Shown: positions 14,447-51,541 of the stretch, in pieces
Layout of the letters: the number at the start of each line of letters is the position of its first letter
How positions within the stretch are numbered: the stretch's first letter is position 1
IMG/VR virus record: IMGVR_UViG_3300046662_000041
Coordinates: 1 to 64,000 of that record
Direction: 5' to 3' (one strand)
Source of the DNA: a virus
Lineage: Duplodnaviria; Caudoviricetes
DNA length: 64,000 nucleotides
The notes under the pieces: model-generated
Database searches by the model: none
Seen by the model: only the letters and a program-made list of their open reading frames with translations
What the model was told of the DNA's origin: nothing
Position numbers and translations under genes: made by a program

Positions 14447-14489
14447 AGCATATCCCATATCCCGTTTTCATGCAATAGTACTTTCGTAC
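14447..14489 (-). promoter_or_regulatory. GTAC-box promoter, copy 1
   Basis: GTACGAAAGTAC-TA-TTGCAT-N17-TATGCT. Confidence 0.75.
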
Positions 14490-15970
14490 TGAATTGCAGT
14501 GTCTGATGCGTAGGCACGTGGCTGATCCTTGACATCCTCGTTGGAGTATTCTTGCCACTTAAGATTCGGCGGATCGATCGCCTGCTCCAAGATCTCTTCA
14601 TCAAAGTGCACACCGCGGCGTTGCCAGTGCCGGGTAACATGATCTGCAAGCTTGACATCTGCTCGGATCGCTTCCTGGCCAAACCAGTATGCACCGGCTT
14701 CCAAAGAACAGACTTCTGGCTGGGCTTCATCGTGACCGGCTTCAGCCTTCCCGCAAAGCTCGCAAAGTGGCACTGCAACTTCGTCGAAGTCGAAGGGCGG
14801 CGGATCATATTTGAATTTATGGTTACTGGCCGGCCGATCCTTACTTCGGCACTCGATGCTGAACTTGTCATCGTGAATACAAGCAAGCTTACCGTGAATG
14901 CAATTAAACTGTTTCCAACCGTCAACCTTCTGGCGCGTCTGCATCTGCTGGCCATCGAAGTATCGATAACCACAATTCTGTGCTGCCCAAAGCCACCCTG
15001 TACTGTCCACAGAGAAGAAGGGATACGCCTCCATCATCTCCTGACTCGAGATGCCCAGGCCATGAATTCGCCAGCGCTCCCACTCATTCATTCCGCCCTT
15101 TCGAGCCATGTCACGTAAGATGCAAAAGCATTTATCCAGCCACACCATCTTAACGTCGACACGAGAGCCGTCGACCTTCGGTGCAAGGCAGAGGCGCTCG
15201 CCCACATTCACTTCCTCAGCTAACTTCACAAGCCATTTGAAATCATCACCACGATGGAAGGTCGGGATACATGGCACGCCTGCGGCTTCCATCTCTTTCC
15301 AGTTGCGATAGCCTTGATCGCAAGCGACCTCGAGCTCGCTTGGTGTCGGATATTTAGGAGGAGTTGCAGTCACGTCAGCATAAGAGCCAGCAATGACGTC
15401 TAGGCCGATAAACTCGATCTGGCAGACGGCCTTCTCTTGCATCTGCTTTGCGTAGGAAATATAATCCTTGAGGTCAATTGGCTTGCCTTGACGCCAGGCC
15501 GTAAAAGCACCAGAATCAATCAAGAGGTGATATTCAAATTGCTTTGTAGCGAAGTCCTCGGCCAATTGTTGTGCGCCTTTGTGGGCATTGGTGCACAGGA
15601 GATTGTGCTCTCCTGTTTCCTCACAGACCTCGCGCTGCAGGTCAGGGCCCCAATTGCCTGCGATGAAAAGCTTCATATCGTCTTTGCGGTCCCTTGTGGA
15701 GAAGTGATCTGCCGTCATCTTAGACGTGTTGTGACCAAATGAGCAAAGGATATTTTGTACGCCACCTGCACGCGATGACTTCCAGAGATCGTCACCGTTG
15801 CCGAGCCCCGCTACGAAAAGCTCCATTCGCTCTTTCCCTTCGGCCAGGATTCGTGCTGTCTCACGTGCATTGCTCCAACCCGCTGAAAGCAGGACATGGG
15901 CGGCACCGGACGCGTAAAGTTGCTTCCGCTGCCCGATGCCACCTAATGATCCTGCGATAAATAGTCTCAT
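14468..15970 (-). CDS. DpdA/TGT-like 7-deazaguanine transglycosylase
   Basis: LIDSGAFTAW, GLDVI, PTFHRGD, IHGLG, PFFSVDSTGW TGT-barrel motifs; downstream of folE/queE/queD. Confidence 0.75.
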   Translation of the reverse strand: MRLFIAGSLGGIGQRKQLYASGAAHVLLSAGWSNARETARILAEGKERMELFVAGLGNGDDLWKSSRAGGVQNILCSFGHNTSKMTADHFSTRDRKDDMKLFIAGNWGPDLQREVCEETGEHNLLCTNAHKGAQQLAEDFATKQFEYHLLIDSGAFTAWRQGKPIDLKDYISYAKQMQEKAVCQIEFIGLDVIAGSYADVTATPPKYPTPSELEVACDQGYRNWKEMEAAGVPCIPTFHRGDDFKWLVKLAEEVNVGERLCLAPKVDGSRVDVKMVWLDKCFCILRDMARKGGMNEWERWRIHGLGISSQEMMEAYPFFSVDSTGWLWAAQNCGYRYFDGQQMQTRQKVDGWKQFNCIHGKLACIHDDKFSIECRSKDRPASNHKFKYDPPPFDFDEVAVPLCELCGKAEAGHDEAQPEVCSLEAGAYWFGQEAIRADVKLADHVTRHWQRRGVHFDEEILEQAIDPPNLKWQEYSNEDVKDQPRAYASDTAIQYESTIA

Positions 15971-42230: not shown

Positions 42231-43414
42231 TATTCCTCAATTGACTGGTCAAGCCACTCCTCACCTAATCTTGTGAGGAATTTGTCGCGGCCTTCAGGAT
42301 CGCGGCCGCAGATATATCGCATATCACAGTGCGGACACTTCTCGTCAGGGAAGCGCACTCCTGGCTCCATCGGATAAAACTGCTCTTCATGCGAAACGAC
42401 CATCTCAACCGTCGTCAGACCCACAAGTCGGCCCATCTCCTCGATCGTTTCCTCTGGTAGTCTGGCGGCACCAAACTGGAGACGTTGCTTGGAGAGCATA
42501 CGAGACGGGACAAGCATCGCCTTGCCTTCATTCAGAAATTTCTTAGATGCCACATCTGCAATTTTTCCCTTTAACGCATATCCGTCAGCCCCATTCGTTG
42601 CCTCATCATAAGCCCGCTGGACGTCACCAGTAGAAATCCATACTGAGTCACCATCCTTGTCCAGGACGAAAAGCTCTTGGCCAGCTTGGTACCTGCCAGC
42701 CGCCTCAAGCAAGGTTATGCGACTCCCACACTTCATACCGTGACTCTTCTTTACAAGCCAGAGGAAGGCAACGTCATACTCCTGTTTCATCCACGCGTAT
42801 TCGATTAACTGCGGATCCAATGCGACAAACATTTCCACAAGATCCTTGCTGGCCGTCTTGATATCGATCAAGACCGTGCGCTTGTCCGGCGGATAGGTTT
42901 CCAGGGCCGGCAGCATCGAGTGATGTGGATACGTTTGGCAGATTACGTCAAGGATTGCTGTGTTGACGATTCCTGCGTAAGACGTGCCAGGAAATACCTC
43001 TTTCCATAAGGGCACCTGAAATCGTGCATTCTGCATCGGCAACTTAGGGTAGCGAAGCTCAAAGATCCGCATCAGCTCTACGCCACATCTCAGCAGATTC
43101 TCCCAACTCTCTTCAACGTTGGAATACTCGAGCTTCGGAAATTCCGGCAGGGCCTGGATGTCATGCCACAGCTCAGCAAACCGCATTACACCGCCGAAAC
43201 CTCCGCTTTCAACGTGAAAGCGAATCGCGTCTTCAATCTTGTGGCCAAAATAAGTCGCTGCAGCTAATCGCTTGGCCCGATAGCCCAGCACATACTGAAG
43301 CTGAAACTGCCGCTTGCAAAACTTAAACGATTTTCGAGCGCTGTAAGAGCCCGAGGCCTTGAAGGTACCGTCAGGTTTGACGTATAGTATGCTGTGGGCG
43401 TTGGGCATTTGCAA
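42230..43414 (-). CDS. PD-(D/E)XK (RecB/Cas4-like) nuclease
   Basis: SYS...C.RQF, ILD...IDIKT, QL..Y, C-terminal CPHCD...C. Confidence 0.8.
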   Translation of the reverse strand: MQMPNAHSILYVKPDGTFKASGSYSARKSFKFCKRQFQLQYVLGYRAKRLAAATYFGHKIEDAIRFHVESGGFGGVMRFAELWHDIQALPEFPKLEYSNVEESWENLLRCGVELMRIFELRYPKLPMQNARFQVPLWKEVFPGTSYAGIVNTAILDVICQTYPHHSMLPALETYPPDKRTVLIDIKTASKDLVEMFVALDPQLIEYAWMKQEYDVAFLWLVKKSHGMKCGSRITLLEAAGRYQAGQELFVLDKDGDSVWISTGDVQRAYDEATNGADGYALKGKIADVASKKFLNEGKAMLVPSRMLSKQRLQFGAARLPEETIEEMGRLVGLTTVEMVVSHEEQFYPMEPGVRFPDEKCPHCDMRYICGRDPEGRDKFLTRLGEEWLDQSIEE

Positions 43415-45221
43415 TCATCACATGTAGAAAATCAGGCTCACTCAGGTCCGCTGCAAGAATATGGCCGCGAATGTATGGCGATGGCACTGTATTGCAAGAG
43501 ATGTGCAGCTCTTTGGCAGCTCGACTAATTGCAACAAAGTAGATCCTTGCTTCTTCGTCAGGATCACCATTGATATGTGGCAGCACCTCGTCGTTAACAC
43601 CTACCACATAAACACTATTCCACTCTTTGCCTTTGCTTTGGTGAATCGTCGAAAGGGTCAATCGATCCTTAGAAGTCGATCTGGTCGCGGCCTTAGCCTT
43701 GAGGCAGGAGTAAACAAAATCGAAGAGGCTAGACTTATTCTCAGCCATCCGCAGTAGCGTCCGCACGTTGTCAGCCGGATTGTTATCAATGGCGTCTTCA
43801 TCATCTTCGTAATGGTGCAGTATGGAGAAATTAGTGATGATGTTTCGGAGTGCATCTTGTGCGGCCTTCCCGCGGATTGACTTTGCAGTGTCCTGCAGAC
43901 GGAAGTGGAGGTCAAGCACTTTACTGGTCTGCTCGTGATCGGATACCCGAAACTTACCAAGCAACTGTGCGAAGGTCGTTTTACCAATGCTCCCGCGTTG
44001 CATGTCAGCGAGTGCGTCGAGTGTCTCACCCTTCTTGATAAACCGCGTGCAGTCGAAAGGGCTCTTGATAATCGTTTTGATGACGTGGTCGGTGGGATTG
44101 ATGAAGTACTGTGCGAAAGCGAGCGTGCAATTCACTTCCTCTTGGTGGAAGAAGCCCGACTTGCCAAGCAGTCTGTATTTGATATCTTTCTCACCACATA
44201 GACGCTCAAATGCAGCAAGCTGACGGTTGGTCCTGGCCAGGATGGCCGTCTGCTCATGCGAGCCCATTCCTTCGATGATCTTTTGGGCTTCGAGGTCGTC
44301 ATCAGCATAACGCACGAAGGTTGGCTCAACACCATAAGGATTCCGCGTCCGCATCTCTGTCTTCACGGGCGCAACTGACATCATGTACTTCACGATCGCG
44401 CCCGTTGACCGATAATTCTCAGGCAGGTAAAGCAGTCGGCCGTTTGGAAATCGTTCGATGAATCTTGTCGTGAGCCCCTCCGGATCTGAGCCACGCCAAG
44501 AGTACATATTCTGATTTGGGTCACCGACGCAGAAGACATTACCGTGACGCTGCGTCAAAAGCTGGACAAGGCGCCATTGTACTTCATCATTGTCCTGGGC
44601 CTCATCGCACTGGACATAATCCATCTGATGTCGCTCAAGGATATCGCTGCGGCTCTCTAGCAACCGCACGGTCTCAATCAGGATCGAATCGAAGTCCAGC
44701 TTGCCGATCTGCTTGCACTTCTCTTCATAACGCTCATAGATTTGTGCATAGGCTTCGCCAAACTCACCGTCAGCTTGGTCCCAGGCTTTTTCAGGTGACA
44801 TGTTGTGCCGTTTGAAGCCACTGATCGCTGCCTGTACATCTCGATACTTCAAACGCTTGGAAGCTTGCTTGATGAGCGGGACAAGGATTTTGAATTGCTC
44901 GAGAAGTAAGGGCCAGTGACTTACCTCAAACGAGAATTCTTCCCGCTCGCGAGTCACAAAATCCAATGCCCAGCCATGGAATGTCCGGAAGATCCGCGGC
45001 TTGTTAGGTCCGGGAACGTACTTTGATCGCGCTTCAAACTCCTTAGCTGCTTCCTTCGTGAAAGTCAGGCCCAGAAAGCTCGAAGGCACAGTGCCTTCAT
45101 TAAGGATTGCTCTAGCGCGGAATGAAAAGACTGTGGTCTTTCCGCTTCCAGGAATGGCCGTAACGTTGTAAGCACCGTGCCGGGTCGCGATCGCAGCCCG
45201 TTGCTCCGCATTTAGATCCAA
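43371..45221 (-). CDS. UvrD/PcrA-like SF1 helicase
   Basis: PGSGKTT, TFH, DEAQD, GDPNQ, NYRST, TIHQSKGKE, RI.FVAISRA. Confidence 0.95.
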   Translation of the reverse strand: MDLNAEQRAAIATRHGAYNVTAIPGSGKTTVFSFRARAILNEGTVPSSFLGLTFTKEAAKEFEARSKYVPGPNKPRIFRTFHGWALDFVTREREEFSFEVSHWPLLLEQFKILVPLIKQASKRLKYRDVQAAISGFKRHNMSPEKAWDQADGEFGEAYAQIYERYEEKCKQIGKLDFDSILIETVRLLESRSDILERHQMDYVQCDEAQDNDEVQWRLVQLLTQRHGNVFCVGDPNQNMYSWRGSDPEGLTTRFIERFPNGRLLYLPENYRSTGAIVKYMMSVAPVKTEMRTRNPYGVEPTFVRYADDDLEAQKIIEGMGSHEQTAILARTNRQLAAFERLCGEKDIKYRLLGKSGFFHQEEVNCTLAFAQYFINPTDHVIKTIIKSPFDCTRFIKKGETLDALADMQRGSIGKTTFAQLLGKFRVSDHEQTSKVLDLHFRLQDTAKSIRGKAAQDALRNIITNFSILHHYEDDEDAIDNNPADNVRTLLRMAENKSSLFDFVYSCLKAKAATRSTSKDRLTLSTIHQSKGKEWNSVYVVGVNDEVLPHINGDPDEEARIYFVAISRAAKELHISCNTVPSPYIRGHILAADLSEPDFLHVMIANAQRPQHTIRQT

Positions 45222-45402: not shown

Positions 45403-45831
45403 TTAGAAAGGAATATCTTCGTCGCTAATCTCAGTACCCGTTGGGCCACTGTCATTTTTTGTCCCTTCATATGCTTCAGCAGGTGGAGCTTCGGGCTTGG
45501 CACCACGCTCGCCACCGCCTAGCATTTTGAGCTCACGGGCCACAATTTCTGTGGAATAATGGGTCACGCCTTCTTTCTCCCACTTCCGCGTCTCAATCTT
45601 GCCCTCGATGAAGACTAACATGCCTTTCGTGACATACTGCTGAACAATTTCGGCCAATTTTCCCCAAGCGACAATACGGTGCCACTCTGTCTTTTTCTGC
45701 TTATCACCGTTGCGATCCTTGTAGGATTCATCGGTAGCCACGGAGAAGTTGCAAACGGCTGTGCCGCTTTGTGTGTAACGCGTCTCGGGATCTTTTCCCA
45801 ATCTTCCAACTATTATGGCCTTGTTCACCAT
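45403..45831 (-). CDS. ssb: single-stranded DNA-binding protein
   Basis: NKAIIVGRLGKDPE...TEWH...C-terminal DEDIPF; AAGGAG RBS. Confidence 0.97.
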   Translation of the reverse strand: MVNKAIIVGRLGKDPETRYTQSGTAVCNFSVATDESYKDRNGDKQKKTEWHRIVAWGKLAEIVQQYVTKGMLVFIEGKIETRKWEKEGVTHYSTEIVARELKMLGGGERGAKPEAPPAEAYEGTKNDSGPTGTEISDEDIPF

Positions 45832-46211
45832 ATTTGACTCTCCTTGAATGTTTGAATACGATGGCAATTTGAGCAAAGAATCTTACACTTTTTCGCTTCG
45901 GCTTGGATCGCCGCAAGCGTCATGTATTTGGCGATCATGTGGGCGATCGTGAATCTTTTCAGGTGTCGCTTGACATGATGAAAATCTAAAGCAGCGTGGT
46001 GCTTCTTGAAACCACATTTATAGCAGCCCTTTCTTAACTTATAGCCGCGAGCCCACTTTCGAAGAGCAAGTAAATGTCGCTTCCGCCACCGCAAATTTCG
46101 TTTTCTTCGAAGGTTGGTACTCTTCGGCCTAGCCTCATATTTCTTGCGCCAGCGGCGTCGGGCAGGGCGCTGCTCATATTCACGCTGCCAAACTTGTTTA
46201 TTGAAACTCAC
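45825..46211 (-). CDS. HNH endonuclease
   Basis: CYKCG...LDFHH...KC.ILCSNCHR. Confidence 0.85.
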   Translation of the reverse strand: MSFNKQVWQREYEQRPARRRWRKKYEARPKSTNLRRKRNLRWRKRHLLALRKWARGYKLRKGCYKCGFKKHHAALDFHHVKRHLKRFTIAHMIAKYMTLAAIQAEAKKCKILCSNCHRIQTFKESQIW

Positions 46212-47542: not shown

Positions 47543-47586
47543 GTACTAAAGTACTATTGCCACAATCATCAGCTCGCATATATGCT
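47543..47586 (+). promoter_or_regulatory. GTAC-box promoter, copy 4
   Basis: GTACTAAAGTAC-TA-TTGCCA-N18-TATGCT. Confidence 0.75.
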
Positions 47587-47809: not shown

Positions 47810-47857
47810 TCAATAAAGTGCTTGACAAACGAATCAGCACCAGAGAGGATGCAAAGT

Positions 47858-48562
47858 ATGATAACTTATAAGCGTGACCCCGCCACAGGACAGTACATTA
47901 AGTCGGGCGAGTTTGCAGCGGCAGTTTCCGAAGTCAAAATCAAAATCGATACTGGATCACCATTTGGTTCCTATACCCTAGCCCAGGCCACTGCAATCGT
48001 TGAGGAAGCAATTGCCAAGGGCCTAGTGAAGAAAGACTCCTATTCAATCGTTGGCATGCCGGAGAAAGAGCTGTCCGGTGCAGCGGCCGCAGCGAAGGCC
48101 AAACACGCAGCGAAGGTGGCCAGCGGTGAGATCAAACCCAAAGAGCCGAAAGCGCCAAGAGCGCCACGAGAAAAGAAGGCTCCGAAAGGTTATCAGAAGA
48201 AGGAATTGACCGAGGAAGAGCGACAACGCGTCAACGCCATTCAAGCTGAGAAGAATTTGACCGATGTGAATGAAGCGGTCAAGCTCTTACGCACCGAGCA
48301 ACGCATCGCTCGCTTGGCCGCTGCACGTGCCGCCAATCCAAACAGTCCAGTAGGCAAATCGAAACTGGATCACGAAAAGATCGCACAAATGGCCAAGAAT
48401 GGGCTCACAGTCGGTGCCATCGCAAAGGCTTTCGGTGCATCATATATGGGAATTCGTAACTCATTGCTATCTCACGGGCACGAGCTTCCAGTAGCACCGA
48501 AGAAGCAGAAAACTGCTTCACAGGCCCTACAAGCGACGGAGGTGACACCGCAGGCCTCCTAG
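47858..48562 (+). CDS. Lys/Ala-rich protein with C-terminal HTH (SYMG paralog 2)
   Basis: TVGAIAKAFGASYMGIRNSL; TTGACA-N17-GAGGAT promoter at 47822-47850 suggests a leaderless start at 47858. Confidence 0.75.
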   Translation: MITYKRDPATGQYIKSGEFAAAVSEVKIKIDTGSPFGSYTLAQATAIVEEAIAKGLVKKDSYSIVGMPEKELSGAAAAAKAKHAAKVASGEIKPKEPKAPRAPREKKAPKGYQKKELTEEERQRVNAIQAEKNLTDVNEAVKLLRTEQRIARLAAARAANPNSPVGKSKLDHEKIAQMAKNGLTVGAIAKAFGASYMGIRNSLLSHGHELPVAPKKQKTASQALQATEVTPQAS

Positions 48563-48660
48563 GCCTGGCCGCCCAAAATCGCGTGTCAAAGTCCTGTTTT
48601 ATCAGTAAGTTACAGGCCCAGTTTTGTGCAGTAGGACGTAAAATCTGAAAAGGAGATCCT

Positions 48661-49251
48661 ATGGCATTTACCGAAGCACAAGAAGCGAGGATCGCCGCGA
48701 TCATGTCCGAGCGTGGAATTGCACGCAAGGCCGCGCTGAAAGTTCTCAACGCGGAAAACAAGGCCGCTGCGACCCAGAATATGGCCACGGAGGATGACAT
48801 CGCTGCAAAAGTGGCGAATGTCAAAGCCGTGCAAGCTACACTCAAACTAGCGAAGGATGAGCTCAAGGCCGCGCGGGCGGCAGTGAAAGTCTCAGCCATT
48901 GCTAATAAAGAAGCCATCCTGGCCGAAAAAGCAAAAGCTAAAGCGGACAAGAAGGCTGTACGTGAGCAAAAGAAGGCTGTCGCACAGGTCGAGAAAGCGG
49001 CCGCCAAAGAACAGCGGGCCAAAGCTCGAGCCGAAGCGAAGGTGAAGAAGGCCGCCGAGAAGGCTGCACAACCAAAGAAGCAGCGTGAGTCCAAACTGCC
49101 CGTGGAGCAGATCACGACGCTCTATAAGGCAGGGAAGACGATCGGAGCTATTTCGAAAGAGACTGGGTCAAGTTACATGGGCATCCGCCTCTTCTTGATC
49201 CGGACCAAGCTCTTCGGCACGGTAGCAGCGCCGGCAAAAGTCGCAGCGTAG
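48661..49251 (+). CDS. histone-H1-like Lys/Ala-rich protein with C-terminal HTH (SYMG paralog 3)
   Basis: K/A/E-rich helix; TIGAISKETGSSYMGIRLFL; AAGGAG RBS; ends KVAA. Confidence 0.8.
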   Translation: MAFTEAQEARIAAIMSERGIARKAALKVLNAENKAAATQNMATEDDIAAKVANVKAVQATLKLAKDELKAARAAVKVSAIANKEAILAEKAKAKADKKAVREQKKAVAQVEKAAAKEQRAKARAEAKVKKAAEKAAQPKKQRESKLPVEQITTLYKAGKTIGAISKETGSSYMGIRLFLIRTKLFGTVAAPAKVAA

Positions 49252-49286
49252 GCCAGGCAACACAAATCTAAACGAGAAGGAGAAAG

Positions 49287-49460
49287 ATGATGGCGAAAGC
49301 AAAAGGACACAAAGCAACTGGCAAGAGCATCAATCATGGCCGCGTTGTCAAGCTTTACAAGAAGCTTGGCAAATCGATCAGTGCCGTGGCCAAGCGTATC
49401 GGCGCGTCCTACATGGGCGTCCGCCGCGTGCTGGTCATCGAAGGCACGATCAAAGGATAA
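49287..49460 (+). CDS. minimal HTH protein (SYMG paralog 4), not in ORF track
   Basis: Manual translation MMAKAKGHKATGKSINHGRVVKLYKKLGKSISAVAKRIGASYMGVRRVLVIEGTIKG; AAGGAG RBS. Confidence 0.85.
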   Translation: MMAKAKGHKATGKSINHGRVVKLYKKLGKSISAVAKRIGASYMGVRRVLVIEGTIKG

Positions 49461-49554
49461 AGTGCTTGCTAGTTCCTGAGGAATTAGCTGGTGGAGGCGG
49501 GCAGTACGTAACAGCATGAGGAGTCGTGCTGCCCCACATTTTCCGAGGTGATTT

Positions 49555-49950
49555 ATGGCATTTGATCCACGGCATCCGAATGACCCAGAAAACGAATTGC
49601 GCTACTCCGAAGATCAGCCACGTGACGAGAAGGGGCGCTTCGGATCCGGCGGATCTGCTGCCGAAAAAGCTAACAGTGTGAATGAGCATGAGGCTGCTAC
49701 GAAACATCACATGAAAATGGCCAACAAAGAAGAAGCAAAGGCCAACGAAGCCGAAAGCAAAGGCATGCACGGCGCGGCAGCCTCGCATAAGCAGGCCGCG
49801 GATGCACATATTGTTGCAGCAAGTAAACATGCCGAAGCAGCGGACATGCACAGATCCCTAACACCGTTTTCAGGAAAAGGATCAGTGGATGCGGCAAACG
49901 CGCACAGTGCTTATGCTCGCAATGCATCTCAGGCTGCTAACGCGAAATAA
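49555..49950 (+). CDS. His/Ala-rich helical protein with RYSEDQPRDEKGRFG motif
   Basis: GAGGTG RBS; motif shared with gene 2618-3541; repeated HxxAAxxH. Confidence 0.75.
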   Translation: MAFDPRHPNDPENELRYSEDQPRDEKGRFGSGGSAAEKANSVNEHEAATKHHMKMANKEEAKANEAESKGMHGAAASHKQAADAHIVAASKHAEAADMHRSLTPFSGKGSVDAANAHSAYARNASQAANAK

Positions 49951-49954
49951 CAAG

Positions 49955-50410
49955 TTTCGGTGCAACGATTAGCGGTTCCTAGGAGCAATCCTTTTGATAC
50001 TGGGAAAGCAACTCCATCTCGCCAGGATAGGGAACACGCCGTCAGAATGCCTGGATGCATCGATTAACGCACGTAAATGTCCTATGGTCGCTCAACCGGA
50101 CACGGGTGCAAATCCCGTCGGCTCCACCAACTTGCTTCCGCGTCAGATGAGCCGAAACTACTCTACGGAGAGACGGTCGCTGGCGGGAGCAAGACTGCGG
50201 GGCCGAACTAGATTCGACGGGTGAGATCGATGGTAGGAAGCTCGTGCCGACAATGGCCACCGTCGCTAATCGTGGACCAAACAATAAAAGCGAAGCGAAT
50301 GCTCGCGAAGGTGATCGCGTTTGTCGAGGCTCCGGTGCGCTCATACGCCCCGGTCGCAGTGGCAGCGTAAATTGCCGGTGGAGGCTGCCCGAAAAGGTGG
50401 CCTCCGCACT
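49955..50410 (+). ncRNA. ssrA: circularly permuted (two-piece) tmRNA
   Basis: Acceptor piece ends CGGCTCCACCA at 50129; coding piece starts GGGGCCG at 50199; G3.U70 pair; helix 2 pairing, pseudoknot 1 and tag ORF 50290-50370; outer ends approximate. Confidence 0.92.
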
Positions 50411-50415
50411 TCTTG
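50378..50415 (+). terminator. terminator-like hairpin ending the tmRNA coding piece
   Basis: GTGGAGGCTGCC-CGAAAA-GGTGGCCTCCGC followed by ACTTCTT. Confidence 0.6.
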
Positions 50416-50434
50416 TCAAGTAAATACACAAAAC

Positions 50435-50463
50435 TTGACATAATGCTTGTGATTCTGGATGAT
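50435..50463 (+). promoter_or_regulatory. sigma70-type promoter of the nitrilase-polA operon
   Basis: TTGACA-N17-GATGAT; implies a leaderless start at ATG 50471. Confidence 0.6.
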
Positions 50464-50470
50464 CCCTCCT

Positions 50471-51541
50471 ATGCCTACCGTGAGAGTTGCTAGCTCCATC
50501 CCTCGACAGTTTTGGATGCAATCAGAGAAATTGGCTTGGCTCGACACCGCTATTGCAGCTAACTCTTGCGATCTGTTTCTAACATCGCAAGAATTCGTTG
50601 GCGGCGGTTCGTGTCAGGATTTGTGTCGCCGCAAAGGCTGGCAAACTGATGACGTGCCTGTGACTCCTGCCTGGCTTAGTGAGCATGTCGGCGGCCTCTG
50701 CCAGAAGCATAATGTCCACATCGGTTTCGGTGCCACCGTCAGCCGTGAAGGCATCAACACAGAAGATTATCTTTACTTCGATCCGACAGGAGAGCTGCTA
50801 GGATATCATTCAAAGATAGCACTTCCTGTCCAGGATAGCATCATCAATAATGGTGCATCACAGGTTACTCCGGAGACAAATTTCGAGCGGGCCACCAGCA
50901 TTGTCGAGATTCCAGCACTCGGCCTGCGCGTCGGCACCGTCTTCTGCTGGCAGATTTTCTTTTCCGATTTCTTCACAGAGGTCAAGCGCAACCGTCCCAA
51001 CCTGCTAGTCAACTGCATTAAATTTGCTCCACGAGCATGGTATCAGAAGGATGTGGACCCTGCAGGCCGAAATATACGGAGTGGTTTCTCGCAGGAGACA
51101 GGTAGTAGCAAGCCAGAAGACGATGCCCTCGGCTGGATTGACAAGCTCCGTTTCGAATCTCGGTACAAGGAATTCCCTATAGCAGTCACGTGCAATACGT
51201 GGTCAGCAGGGGCAAAATACCTGGCTCTGGTTGGCTGGGTGGATGAGGTCACGAAACACACGCACCTCGAGAATCTTCCGTCGGTGGCAGAAGCAGAACG
51301 CGTGATTGTGACGGAGTTCGATCCCAGCCTTTATGCCGAGCTTGAGCACTTGAGCTTGGGTGTATATGCGCGTTTCAAAGGCGATTGGGCAGCTTTAATG
51401 CAAGGCACAATGCGGCGAAAGGCTATCAGGATTGAGCAGCGTTGCCGGAGTGGTAAGACTGCCGAGCAGCTCGCCAAGTACCGTGCCAAACCGAAGCCAG
51501 CTAAATCTGTAGAGACACTTCAGCCAGGGATTTTTGACTAA
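50471..51541 (+). CDS. carbon-nitrogen hydrolase (nitrilase superfamily)
   Basis: CDLFLTSQEF (Glu), YFDPTGELLGYHSKI (Lys), RVGTVFCWQIFF (Cys) give the E-K-C triad pattern. Confidence 0.75.
   Translation: MPTVRVASSIPRQFWMQSEKLAWLDTAIAANSCDLFLTSQEFVGGGSCQDLCRRKGWQTDDVPVTPAWLSEHVGGLCQKHNVHIGFGATVSREGINTEDYLYFDPTGELLGYHSKIALPVQDSIINNGASQVTPETNFERATSIVEIPALGLRVGTVFCWQIFFSDFFTEVKRNRPNLLVNCIKFAPRAWYQKDVDPAGRNIRSGFSQETGSSKPEDDALGWIDKLRFESRYKEFPIAVTCNTWSAGAKYLALVGWVDEVTKHTHLENLPSVAEAERVIVTEFDPSLYAELEHLSLGVYARFKGDWAALMQGTMRRKAIRIEQRCRSGKTAEQLAKYRAKPKPAKSVETLQPGIFD

Follow-up and report, generated by a model that had tools for sequence, protein, structure and literature searches.

A probable circularly permuted tmRNA gene with an atypical tag frame in the replication module of an IMG/VR Caudoviricetes phage

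The virus record IMGVR_UViG_3300046662_000041 (Duplodnaviria; Caudoviricetes) is a 92,923-bp linear IMG/VR sequence, about 83% complete, and the window analyzed here comprises its first 64 kb. A putative gene for tmRNA, an RNA that frees stalled ribosomes, stands at the end of a short block of small plus-strand genes resembling regulators (47822–49950). Around it lie genes encoding SSB, an HNH endonuclease, a UvrD-type helicase, a primase-helicase, a sliding clamp, a dNMP kinase, RecA and a 5′-deoxynucleotidase; directly downstream is a gene with a nitrilase fold (50459–51541, +), followed by polA. The rest of the record encodes the large terminase, portal, head protease, major head protein, tape measure and tail proteins. 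Together with the surrounding replication module, these genes agree with the initial annotation, which had taken the RNA to be phage-borne. The record contains one tRNA only (Arg-TCT), and a tyrosine integrase was not found in it.

The nearest isolates according to PolA (about 39% identity) are Nanhaivirus phages of Dinoroseobacter and Pseudanabaena, while TerL and the major head protein are at most 38% and 31% identical, respectively, to proteins of phages of Ralstonia, Burkholderia and Rhizobium. Neither R5C nor Pan1, which are relatives at the level of polA, carries a permuted tmRNA. Metagenome relatives of the neighboring nitrilase-like gene are represented by five distant loci (54–59% identity), and no tmRNA lies within 5 kb at three of them. 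The absence of tmRNA from R5C, Pan1 and these distant relatives suggests that the gene is accessory. Single-protein and alignment-based searches of IMG/VR yielded no confirmed relatives of polA or of the nitrilase-like gene.

Several other features of the record deserve mention in their own right. A DpdA/TGT-like gene (phrog_887) is located at 14468–15970 (−) and is also carried by the Nanhaivirus relatives. The nitrilase-fold gene upstream of polA has about 47 metagenome homologues with 35–74% identity. A match to CyVA-1 RNA (RF02965; 45315–45394, −; 42.6 bits at a cut-off of 41.4, E 2.9e-06) sits between the SSB gene (45403–45876) and the UvrD-type helicase gene (43371–45221).

ARAGORN, applied to the 64-kb window, makes a single permuted tmRNA call (“tmRNA*”) at 50037–50461 (+), with the 3′ tRNA domain at 50091–50129 and the 5′ domain at 50199–50225. 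The Rfam covariance model RF04321, a general model for permuted tmRNA by which pseudoknots are unscored, matches 50069–50370 in a search of the whole window with 91.9 bits (cut-off 47, E 2e-16). The match covers the full model (positions 1–213 of 213), and all 31 modelled pairs are canonical, none being flagged otherwise; 15 of them belong to helix 2 and four to stem 1 of the pseudoknot pk1. This match quality is far above chance for a permuted tmRNA. The standard-order model RF00023 finds the 3′ half alone, with 18 bits, so the gene order is truly permuted: the 3′ tRNA-like half comes first and a 69-nt hairpin spacer separates it from the 5′ tRNA-like half, after which come helix 2 and pk1, the tag frame of 26 codons and, last, a hairpin resembling a terminator (Table 1). 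When the two pieces were rejoined by script in the standard order, ARAGORN called a standard tmRNA with a tag identical to the frame placed by the Rfam alignment. Cofolding of the two putative pieces on energy alone reproduces the acceptor stem and helix 2 along with most of the T-arm, and the fold of the whole precursor is better than those of shuffled sequences (z −2.4).

The ARAGORN call and the RF04321 score thus bear out the circularly permuted, two-piece tmRNA that the initial annotation had read from the letters, and the ARAGORN run it had proposed indeed reports a permuted tmRNA on the native sequence and a standard one on the scripted join. Every element it named is present in the sequence, with slightly corrected coordinates. 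The Rfam comparison of the native sequence, also proposed there, divides: RF04321 is clearly positive, the alphaproteobacterial model only just reaches its cut-off with a local match, and the betaproteobacterial and cyanobacterial models are negative.

Table 1. Elements of the putative permuted tmRNA and associated signals. Positions are those of the 64-kb window.
Feature	Position	Strand	Sequence or pairing	Basis
Candidate promoter of the plus-strand block 47822–49950	47557–47586	+	TTGCCA-18-TATGCT	Consensus scan only
Acceptor piece, minimum extent	50069–50129	+		RF04321 alignment; ARAGORN 3′ tRNA domain; cofold
T-arm	50102–50118	+	ACGGG 50102–50106, loop UGCAAAU 50107–50113, CCCGU 50114–50118	
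Acceptor 3′ strand	50119–50125	+	CGGCUCC, then discriminator A50126 (A73) and encoded CCA 50127–50129	
Intervening segment, 69 nt	50130–50198	+		Treated by the covariance model as the loop closing the acceptor stem
Coding piece, 5′ end	50199–50247	+	Acceptor 5′ strand, D-loop analogue AACUAGAUUCGAC, helix 2 5′ strands	RF04321; ARAGORN 5′ domain; cofold
Acceptor 5′ strand	50199–50205	+	GGGGCCG	Read from sequence
Helix 2, inner part	50218–50225 with 50092–50099	+	One G·A mismatch	
Helix 2, middle part	50228–50238 with 50080–50090	+	One G·G mismatch	
Helix 2, outer part	50243–50247 with 50069–50073	+		Read from sequence
Pseudoknot pk1	50248–50278	+		Stem 1 modelled by RF04321; stem 2 read from sequence
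pk1 stem 1	50248–50251 with 50262–50265	+	CGAC/GUCG	RF04321
pk1 stem 2	50255–50260 with 50272–50278	+	GGCCAC/GUGG(A)CC, 6 pairs, A50276 bulged	Sequence reading
Tag frame	50290–50370	+	Resume codon GCG 50290–50292; 26 codons, AKRMLAKVIAFVEAPVRSYAPVAVAA; stop UAA 50368–50370	
3′ hairpin	50378–50407	+	12 pairs (8 G-C), then ACUUCUUGUC	Promoter/terminator scan; persists in the centroid fold of 50037–50410

The acceptor stem comprises seven pairs including G3·U70 (G50201·U50123), and the sequence reading and the cofold agree that all alanine identity elements are present: this pair within a 7-bp stem, A73 and the 3′ CCA. The 5′ start of the acceptor piece differs by method, being placed at 50037 by ARAGORN, at 50054 by the alphaproteobacterial model match and at 50069 by RF04321. 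The initial annotation had begun the RNA at 49955; the part from there to 50036 is outside all model matches, and the region 49951–50068 has no significant fold (z −0.56), so this extension is not retained. A cofold also proposed a 27-pair duplex between 50037–50070 and the tag frame (50317–50352), which we rejected as no better than that of shuffled sequences (z −1.26; 114/1000 as good).

The spacer between the two pieces forms a stable hairpin (−31.7 kcal/mol, z −3.86, 0/200 shuffles as good), in which 50131–50141 pairs with 50184–50194 and additional inner pairs form; in the precursor this stem stacks on the acceptor stem. No sizeable reading frame is present within the spacer. The tmRNA has a single pseudoknot, pk1. 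Equivalents of PK2–PK4 were not found, only 40 nt being left after the stop codon and no significant fold occurring upstream of helix 2.

The promoter scan found no sigma-70-like site between 49951 and 50068, and the tmRNA may be co-transcribed with the plus-strand block from the candidate promoter upstream of it. Judging by its predicted structure, the 3′ hairpin resembles a terminator, and the transcript or the coding piece probably ends there. An antisense ORF overlapping the locus (50042–50521) has no PHROG match and was treated as spurious.

The tag frame is the least conventional element of the locus. Its resume codon GCG lies 11 nt after pk1, is preceded by AACAAUAAAA and falls on the consensus resume codon GCa in the Rfam alignment, in which GCAGUGGCAGCGUAA falls on the consensus frame end. 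ARAGORN, given the native sequence, keeps the same frame and starts it six codons earlier, inside pk1. An alternative resume codon GCG at 50295 (frame A-N-A) was discarded, as this frame runs for 45 codons through the terminator hairpin and lacks an xAA end. The 26-residue tag starts AKRML and lacks the usual AN(D/N/E) beginning; it combines an alanine resume codon and a hydrophobic xAA-stop end (AVAA), as expected of a tmRNA tag, with an atypical body. ARAGORN, whose tag list does not contain the peptide, returns “Tag not identified”. By comparison, about 75 tags predicted by ARAGORN in permuted tmRNAs from IMG/VR have 9–15 residues and an AN(D/N/E/T) start, with one other odd type among them. 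An open frame of 27 codons is in itself not unlikely by chance alone. The other non-canonical ARAGORN tag, EKKNDYKIIIGRPA, is found in two IMG/VR permuted tmRNAs, L016 (10039–10525, −) and L091 (3869–4355, −), where the resume codon may be mis-set.

No protein encoded in the 92.9-kb record (about 83% complete), the one sequence in which SmpB was looked for, matches PF01668 at E ≤ 1. Host SmpB would therefore be needed, in line with the initial annotation, which had seen none in the window and had proposed reliance on the host protein; SmpB is present in nearly all bacteria (PMC11915505).

Among the clade-specific models, the alphaproteobacterial one (alpha_tmRNA, RF01849) gives the best score, a local match to model positions 40–236 of 355 with 50.1 bits at a cut-off of 50. 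The beta_tmRNA model (RF01850) scores 47.0 bits, below its cut-off of 84, and the cyano_tmRNA model (RF01851) scores 31.2 bits, below its cut-off of 70, matching the tRNA-like domain only (positions 51–126). Comparable values are obtained for the permuted tmRNAs of isolated phages whose alpha- or betaproteobacterial hosts are known: PHB04 has 60.8 bits on the beta model, and Kikimora, Kabachok, Bajun and CcrPW have 40, 46.8, 57.4 and 66.8 bits, respectively, on the alpha model. Several other permuted tmRNAs from IMG/VR match RF04321 only. As isolated-phage tmRNAs are also weak on the clade models, such divergence is the norm for phage copies. On RF04321, CcrPW, Bajun and PHB04 reach 90.4, 87.9 and 104.5 bits, respectively, vs. 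91.9 for the tmRNA studied here.

The T-arm with the acceptor strand is identical at 32 of 33 positions to the tmRNAs of the Brevundimonas jumbo phages Kikimora and Gurke. Within the core, the most similar sequences reach about 80% identity and represent a mixture of alpha-type, beta-type and unassigned copies; nothing aligns beyond the core. The 456-nt stretch produced no blastn match in 50,697 phage records. Exact and degenerate patterns derived from the 5′ half, helix 2 and pk1 yielded no match in IMG/VR, or a single one (L121) that we attribute to chance, since it has no acceptor stem and nothing is called there by ARAGORN. Neither of two pattern scans covering 185,579 species genomes returned a match, the patterns being so narrow that absence in bacteria is not implied. 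A close relative was thus not found in phage isolates, in IMG/VR or in the narrow scans of species genomes. In sequence, the core looks most like the alphaproteobacterial type, which makes this type the best guess for the origin of the gene.

A scan of IMG/VR for the same type of T-arm and acceptor motif selected 102 viral contigs; ARAGORN called a permuted tmRNA in most of them, and several of these genes are inside tRNA arrays of large phage contigs. Two observations concern the genomes of the isolates. In the Brevundimonas phages Kikimora (ON529857.1; L116 669–1014) and Kabachok (ON529852.1; L117 669–924), RF04321 matches of 57.7 and 57.1 bits lie beside tRNA-Cys; both are unannotated in the records and missed by ARAGORN. 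In the Brevundimonas phage Bajun (ON529858.1; L118 1–138, −), a partial match to GOLLD RNA (RF02032; 43.8 bits at a cut-off of 150), cut by the locus end, adjoins the tmRNA and tRNA region.

Judging from its sequence and predicted pairing, the locus encodes a phage circularly permuted tmRNA (ssrA), whose mode of action is most likely that of the two-piece tmRNAs known from bacteria such as Caulobacter. The precursor would be transcribed either from its own, unrecognised promoter or as the last unit of the plus-strand block starting near 47557, and would end at the 3′ hairpin. By analogy with Caulobacter-type tmRNAs, the spacer would be excised, with host RNase P cutting 5′ of G50199 and the upstream piece being trimmed to CCA50129. 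The acceptor stem (7 bp) and helix 2 (about 20 pairs) would then hold the two pieces together. Through G3·U70 and A73, host AlaRS would charge the RNA with alanine, and with host SmpB and EF-Tu it would then reach ribosomes that have stalled on broken mRNAs. Translation would resume at GCG50290, appending (A)AKRMLAKVIAFVEAPVRSYAPVAVAA, whose -VAA end would mark the product for ClpXP-type proteolysis. Processing, charging and tagging are modelled here on established knowledge of tmRNAs. The phage would likely benefit from ribosomes being freed while host mRNA is degraded or cleaved in infection. The gene was probably gained as an accessory element from a host or another phage in which it was already permuted.

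The atypical tag raises the question of whether this RNA still tags proteins at all. A captured tmRNA that has lost this function could be decaying, or it could act through its tRNA-like domain only, competing with the host tmRNA for SmpB and alanylation, comparable to the inhibitory, CDS-less tmRNA-like RNA of mycobacteriophage DS6A cited in PMC11915505; phage tmRNAs may also counteract host tagging (PMC5648845). The length and composition of the tag, which ARAGORN does not identify and which differs from the roughly 75 shorter viral tags starting with AN, fit such a loss, as do the weak scores on clade models and the missing PK2–PK4, and no close relative was found that could show purifying selection. 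Nevertheless, all 31 modelled pairs are canonical, and pk1, the A-rich spacer, the alanine resume codon at the usual distance and the ...AVAA-stop end are intact. Some of these features would probably be missing from a gene in decay, so their preservation argues against decay, and we regard the non-tagging explanation as unlikely. The same peculiarities could also belong to a minimal two-piece lineage maintained by phages, with pk1 as its only pseudoknot, a stable excised hairpin spacer and a redesigned 26-residue basic/hydrophobic tag that gives rescued proteins a fate other than that conferred by AND...LAA tags, possibly originating from a separate permutation. We offer this proposal as speculation and consider it rather improbable; if true, the tag could, for example, be recognized by another protease or with no need for an SspB-type adaptor.

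The provenance of the probable permuted tmRNA can also be read in other ways. The initial annotation had suggested an independent permutation event, i.e., the rearrangement of a one-piece tmRNA within the phage lineage, which would be compatible with the poor fit to all three clade models, the empty pattern scans of species genomes and the periphery unlike that of other tmRNAs. However, PHB04, Kikimora and Kabachok are equally weak on the clade models and several IMG/VR copies are recognized by RF04321 only, the core resembles alpha-type and phage copies, including the nearly identical T-arm and acceptor strand of the Brevundimonas phages, and narrow scans with a zero result cannot show absence. 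No one-piece relative was found as a possible ancestor either. With no positive evidence in its favor and with the alpha model giving the best clade score, we consider a separate permutation in this lineage very improbable. Concerning the DNA itself, tmRNA genes are common integration sites. Host flanks are frequent in IMG/VR contigs, and many of the 102 motif contigs are short with the tmRNA near an end, so the gene might be host DNA (an attachment-site remnant or a prophage flank) or a product of chimeric assembly. Yet the contig is 92.9 kb long and the gene is found 50 kb from its start, flanked on either side by phage replication genes and further out by virion genes; it is complete rather than a 3′ fragment, a tyrosine integrase was not found, and an arrangement with a closed acceptor stem and 91.9 bits on the permuted model would not result from a mis-join. 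Host DNA or a chimera is accordingly the least credible origin, with hardly any chance of being correct: the gene is complete and belongs to a genuine phage genome, rather than to flanking host DNA or the remains of an attachment site.

The tmRNA studied here is one more divergent example of an established class of phage ribosome-rescue RNAs, permuted phage tmRNAs being already in print, and it opens no new question. It illustrates that a permuted tmRNA can occur in a siphovirus-like phage of medium size that has a single tRNA, and can be located in the replication module rather than in a tRNA array. Only the long non-canonical tag, the lack of PK2–PK4 and the singleton status go beyond routine annotation. 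If the tag is really used, this natural variant could help to find out which parts of a tag are important for proteolysis and why phages bring their own tmRNA.

The initial annotation knew phage tmRNAs as one-piece molecules, a view which is outdated: in a screen of 18,146 phage genomes, Buchholz et al. (2022) found 133 distinct tmRNAs, 53 of them permuted, mostly in aquatic phages (PMC9004378), and many more occur in IMG/VR. The permuted tmRNAs in Table S1 of that study belong to phiCbK-like and Colossus-like Caulobacter phages, Synechococcus myophages, pelagiphages, Lacusarx (Sphingobium), PHB04 (Bordetella) and others (PMC9004378). The tmRNA database of 2025 holds 79 phage sequences (PMC11915505). 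One-piece phage tmRNAs, such as those of mycobacteriophage cluster C (e.g., Bxz1) and of Streptomyces and Lactococcus phages (PMC9004378), are likewise phage rescue RNAs presumably acting with host SmpB, but they have the standard gene order, unlike the gene studied here.

Bacterial two-piece tmRNAs are closer in organization. The Caulobacter type was described by Keiler, Shapiro and Williams in 2000, as cited in PMC9004378. With the alphaproteobacterial tmRNA (RF01849), the phage RNA shares the gene order, the pk1 layout, an AUAA-type context before the resume codon and the tag end AVAA. It differs in the T-loop (UGCAAAU instead of the alpha consensus GGCgGUA) and in the tag, which is not of the ANDN type, and it lacks the conserved 3′ region of the alphaproteobacterial type (GGCAACAGAAAC and its neighbors, as in locus L098). 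With the two-piece tmRNAs of RF01850 and RF01851 it has the tRNA-like domain and the gene order in common, both scores being well under the cut-offs.

The most similar systems are the permuted tmRNAs of isolated phages of Caulobacter and Brevundimonas, of Lacusarx, the pelagiphages HTVC008M and Mosig, Melnitz, the Synechococcus myophages and PHB04 (PMC9004378, PMC5648845). In most of these phages, with genomes of 90–350 kb, the tmRNA is placed within a tRNA array, whereas the phage studied here, with a genome of about 93 kb or slightly more, has a single tRNA elsewhere and a tmRNA located in a replication/regulation module. The tags of the isolated phages are of the AN(D) type with 10–17 residues, unlike the tag found here, and the tmRNA of the OM43 phage Melnitz contains a glutamine riboswitch in its 3′ domain, while none was found in the tmRNA of this record. 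What they have in common with the tmRNA studied here is the gene order, the core recognized by RF04321 and the acceptor stem GGGGCCG/CGGCUCC.
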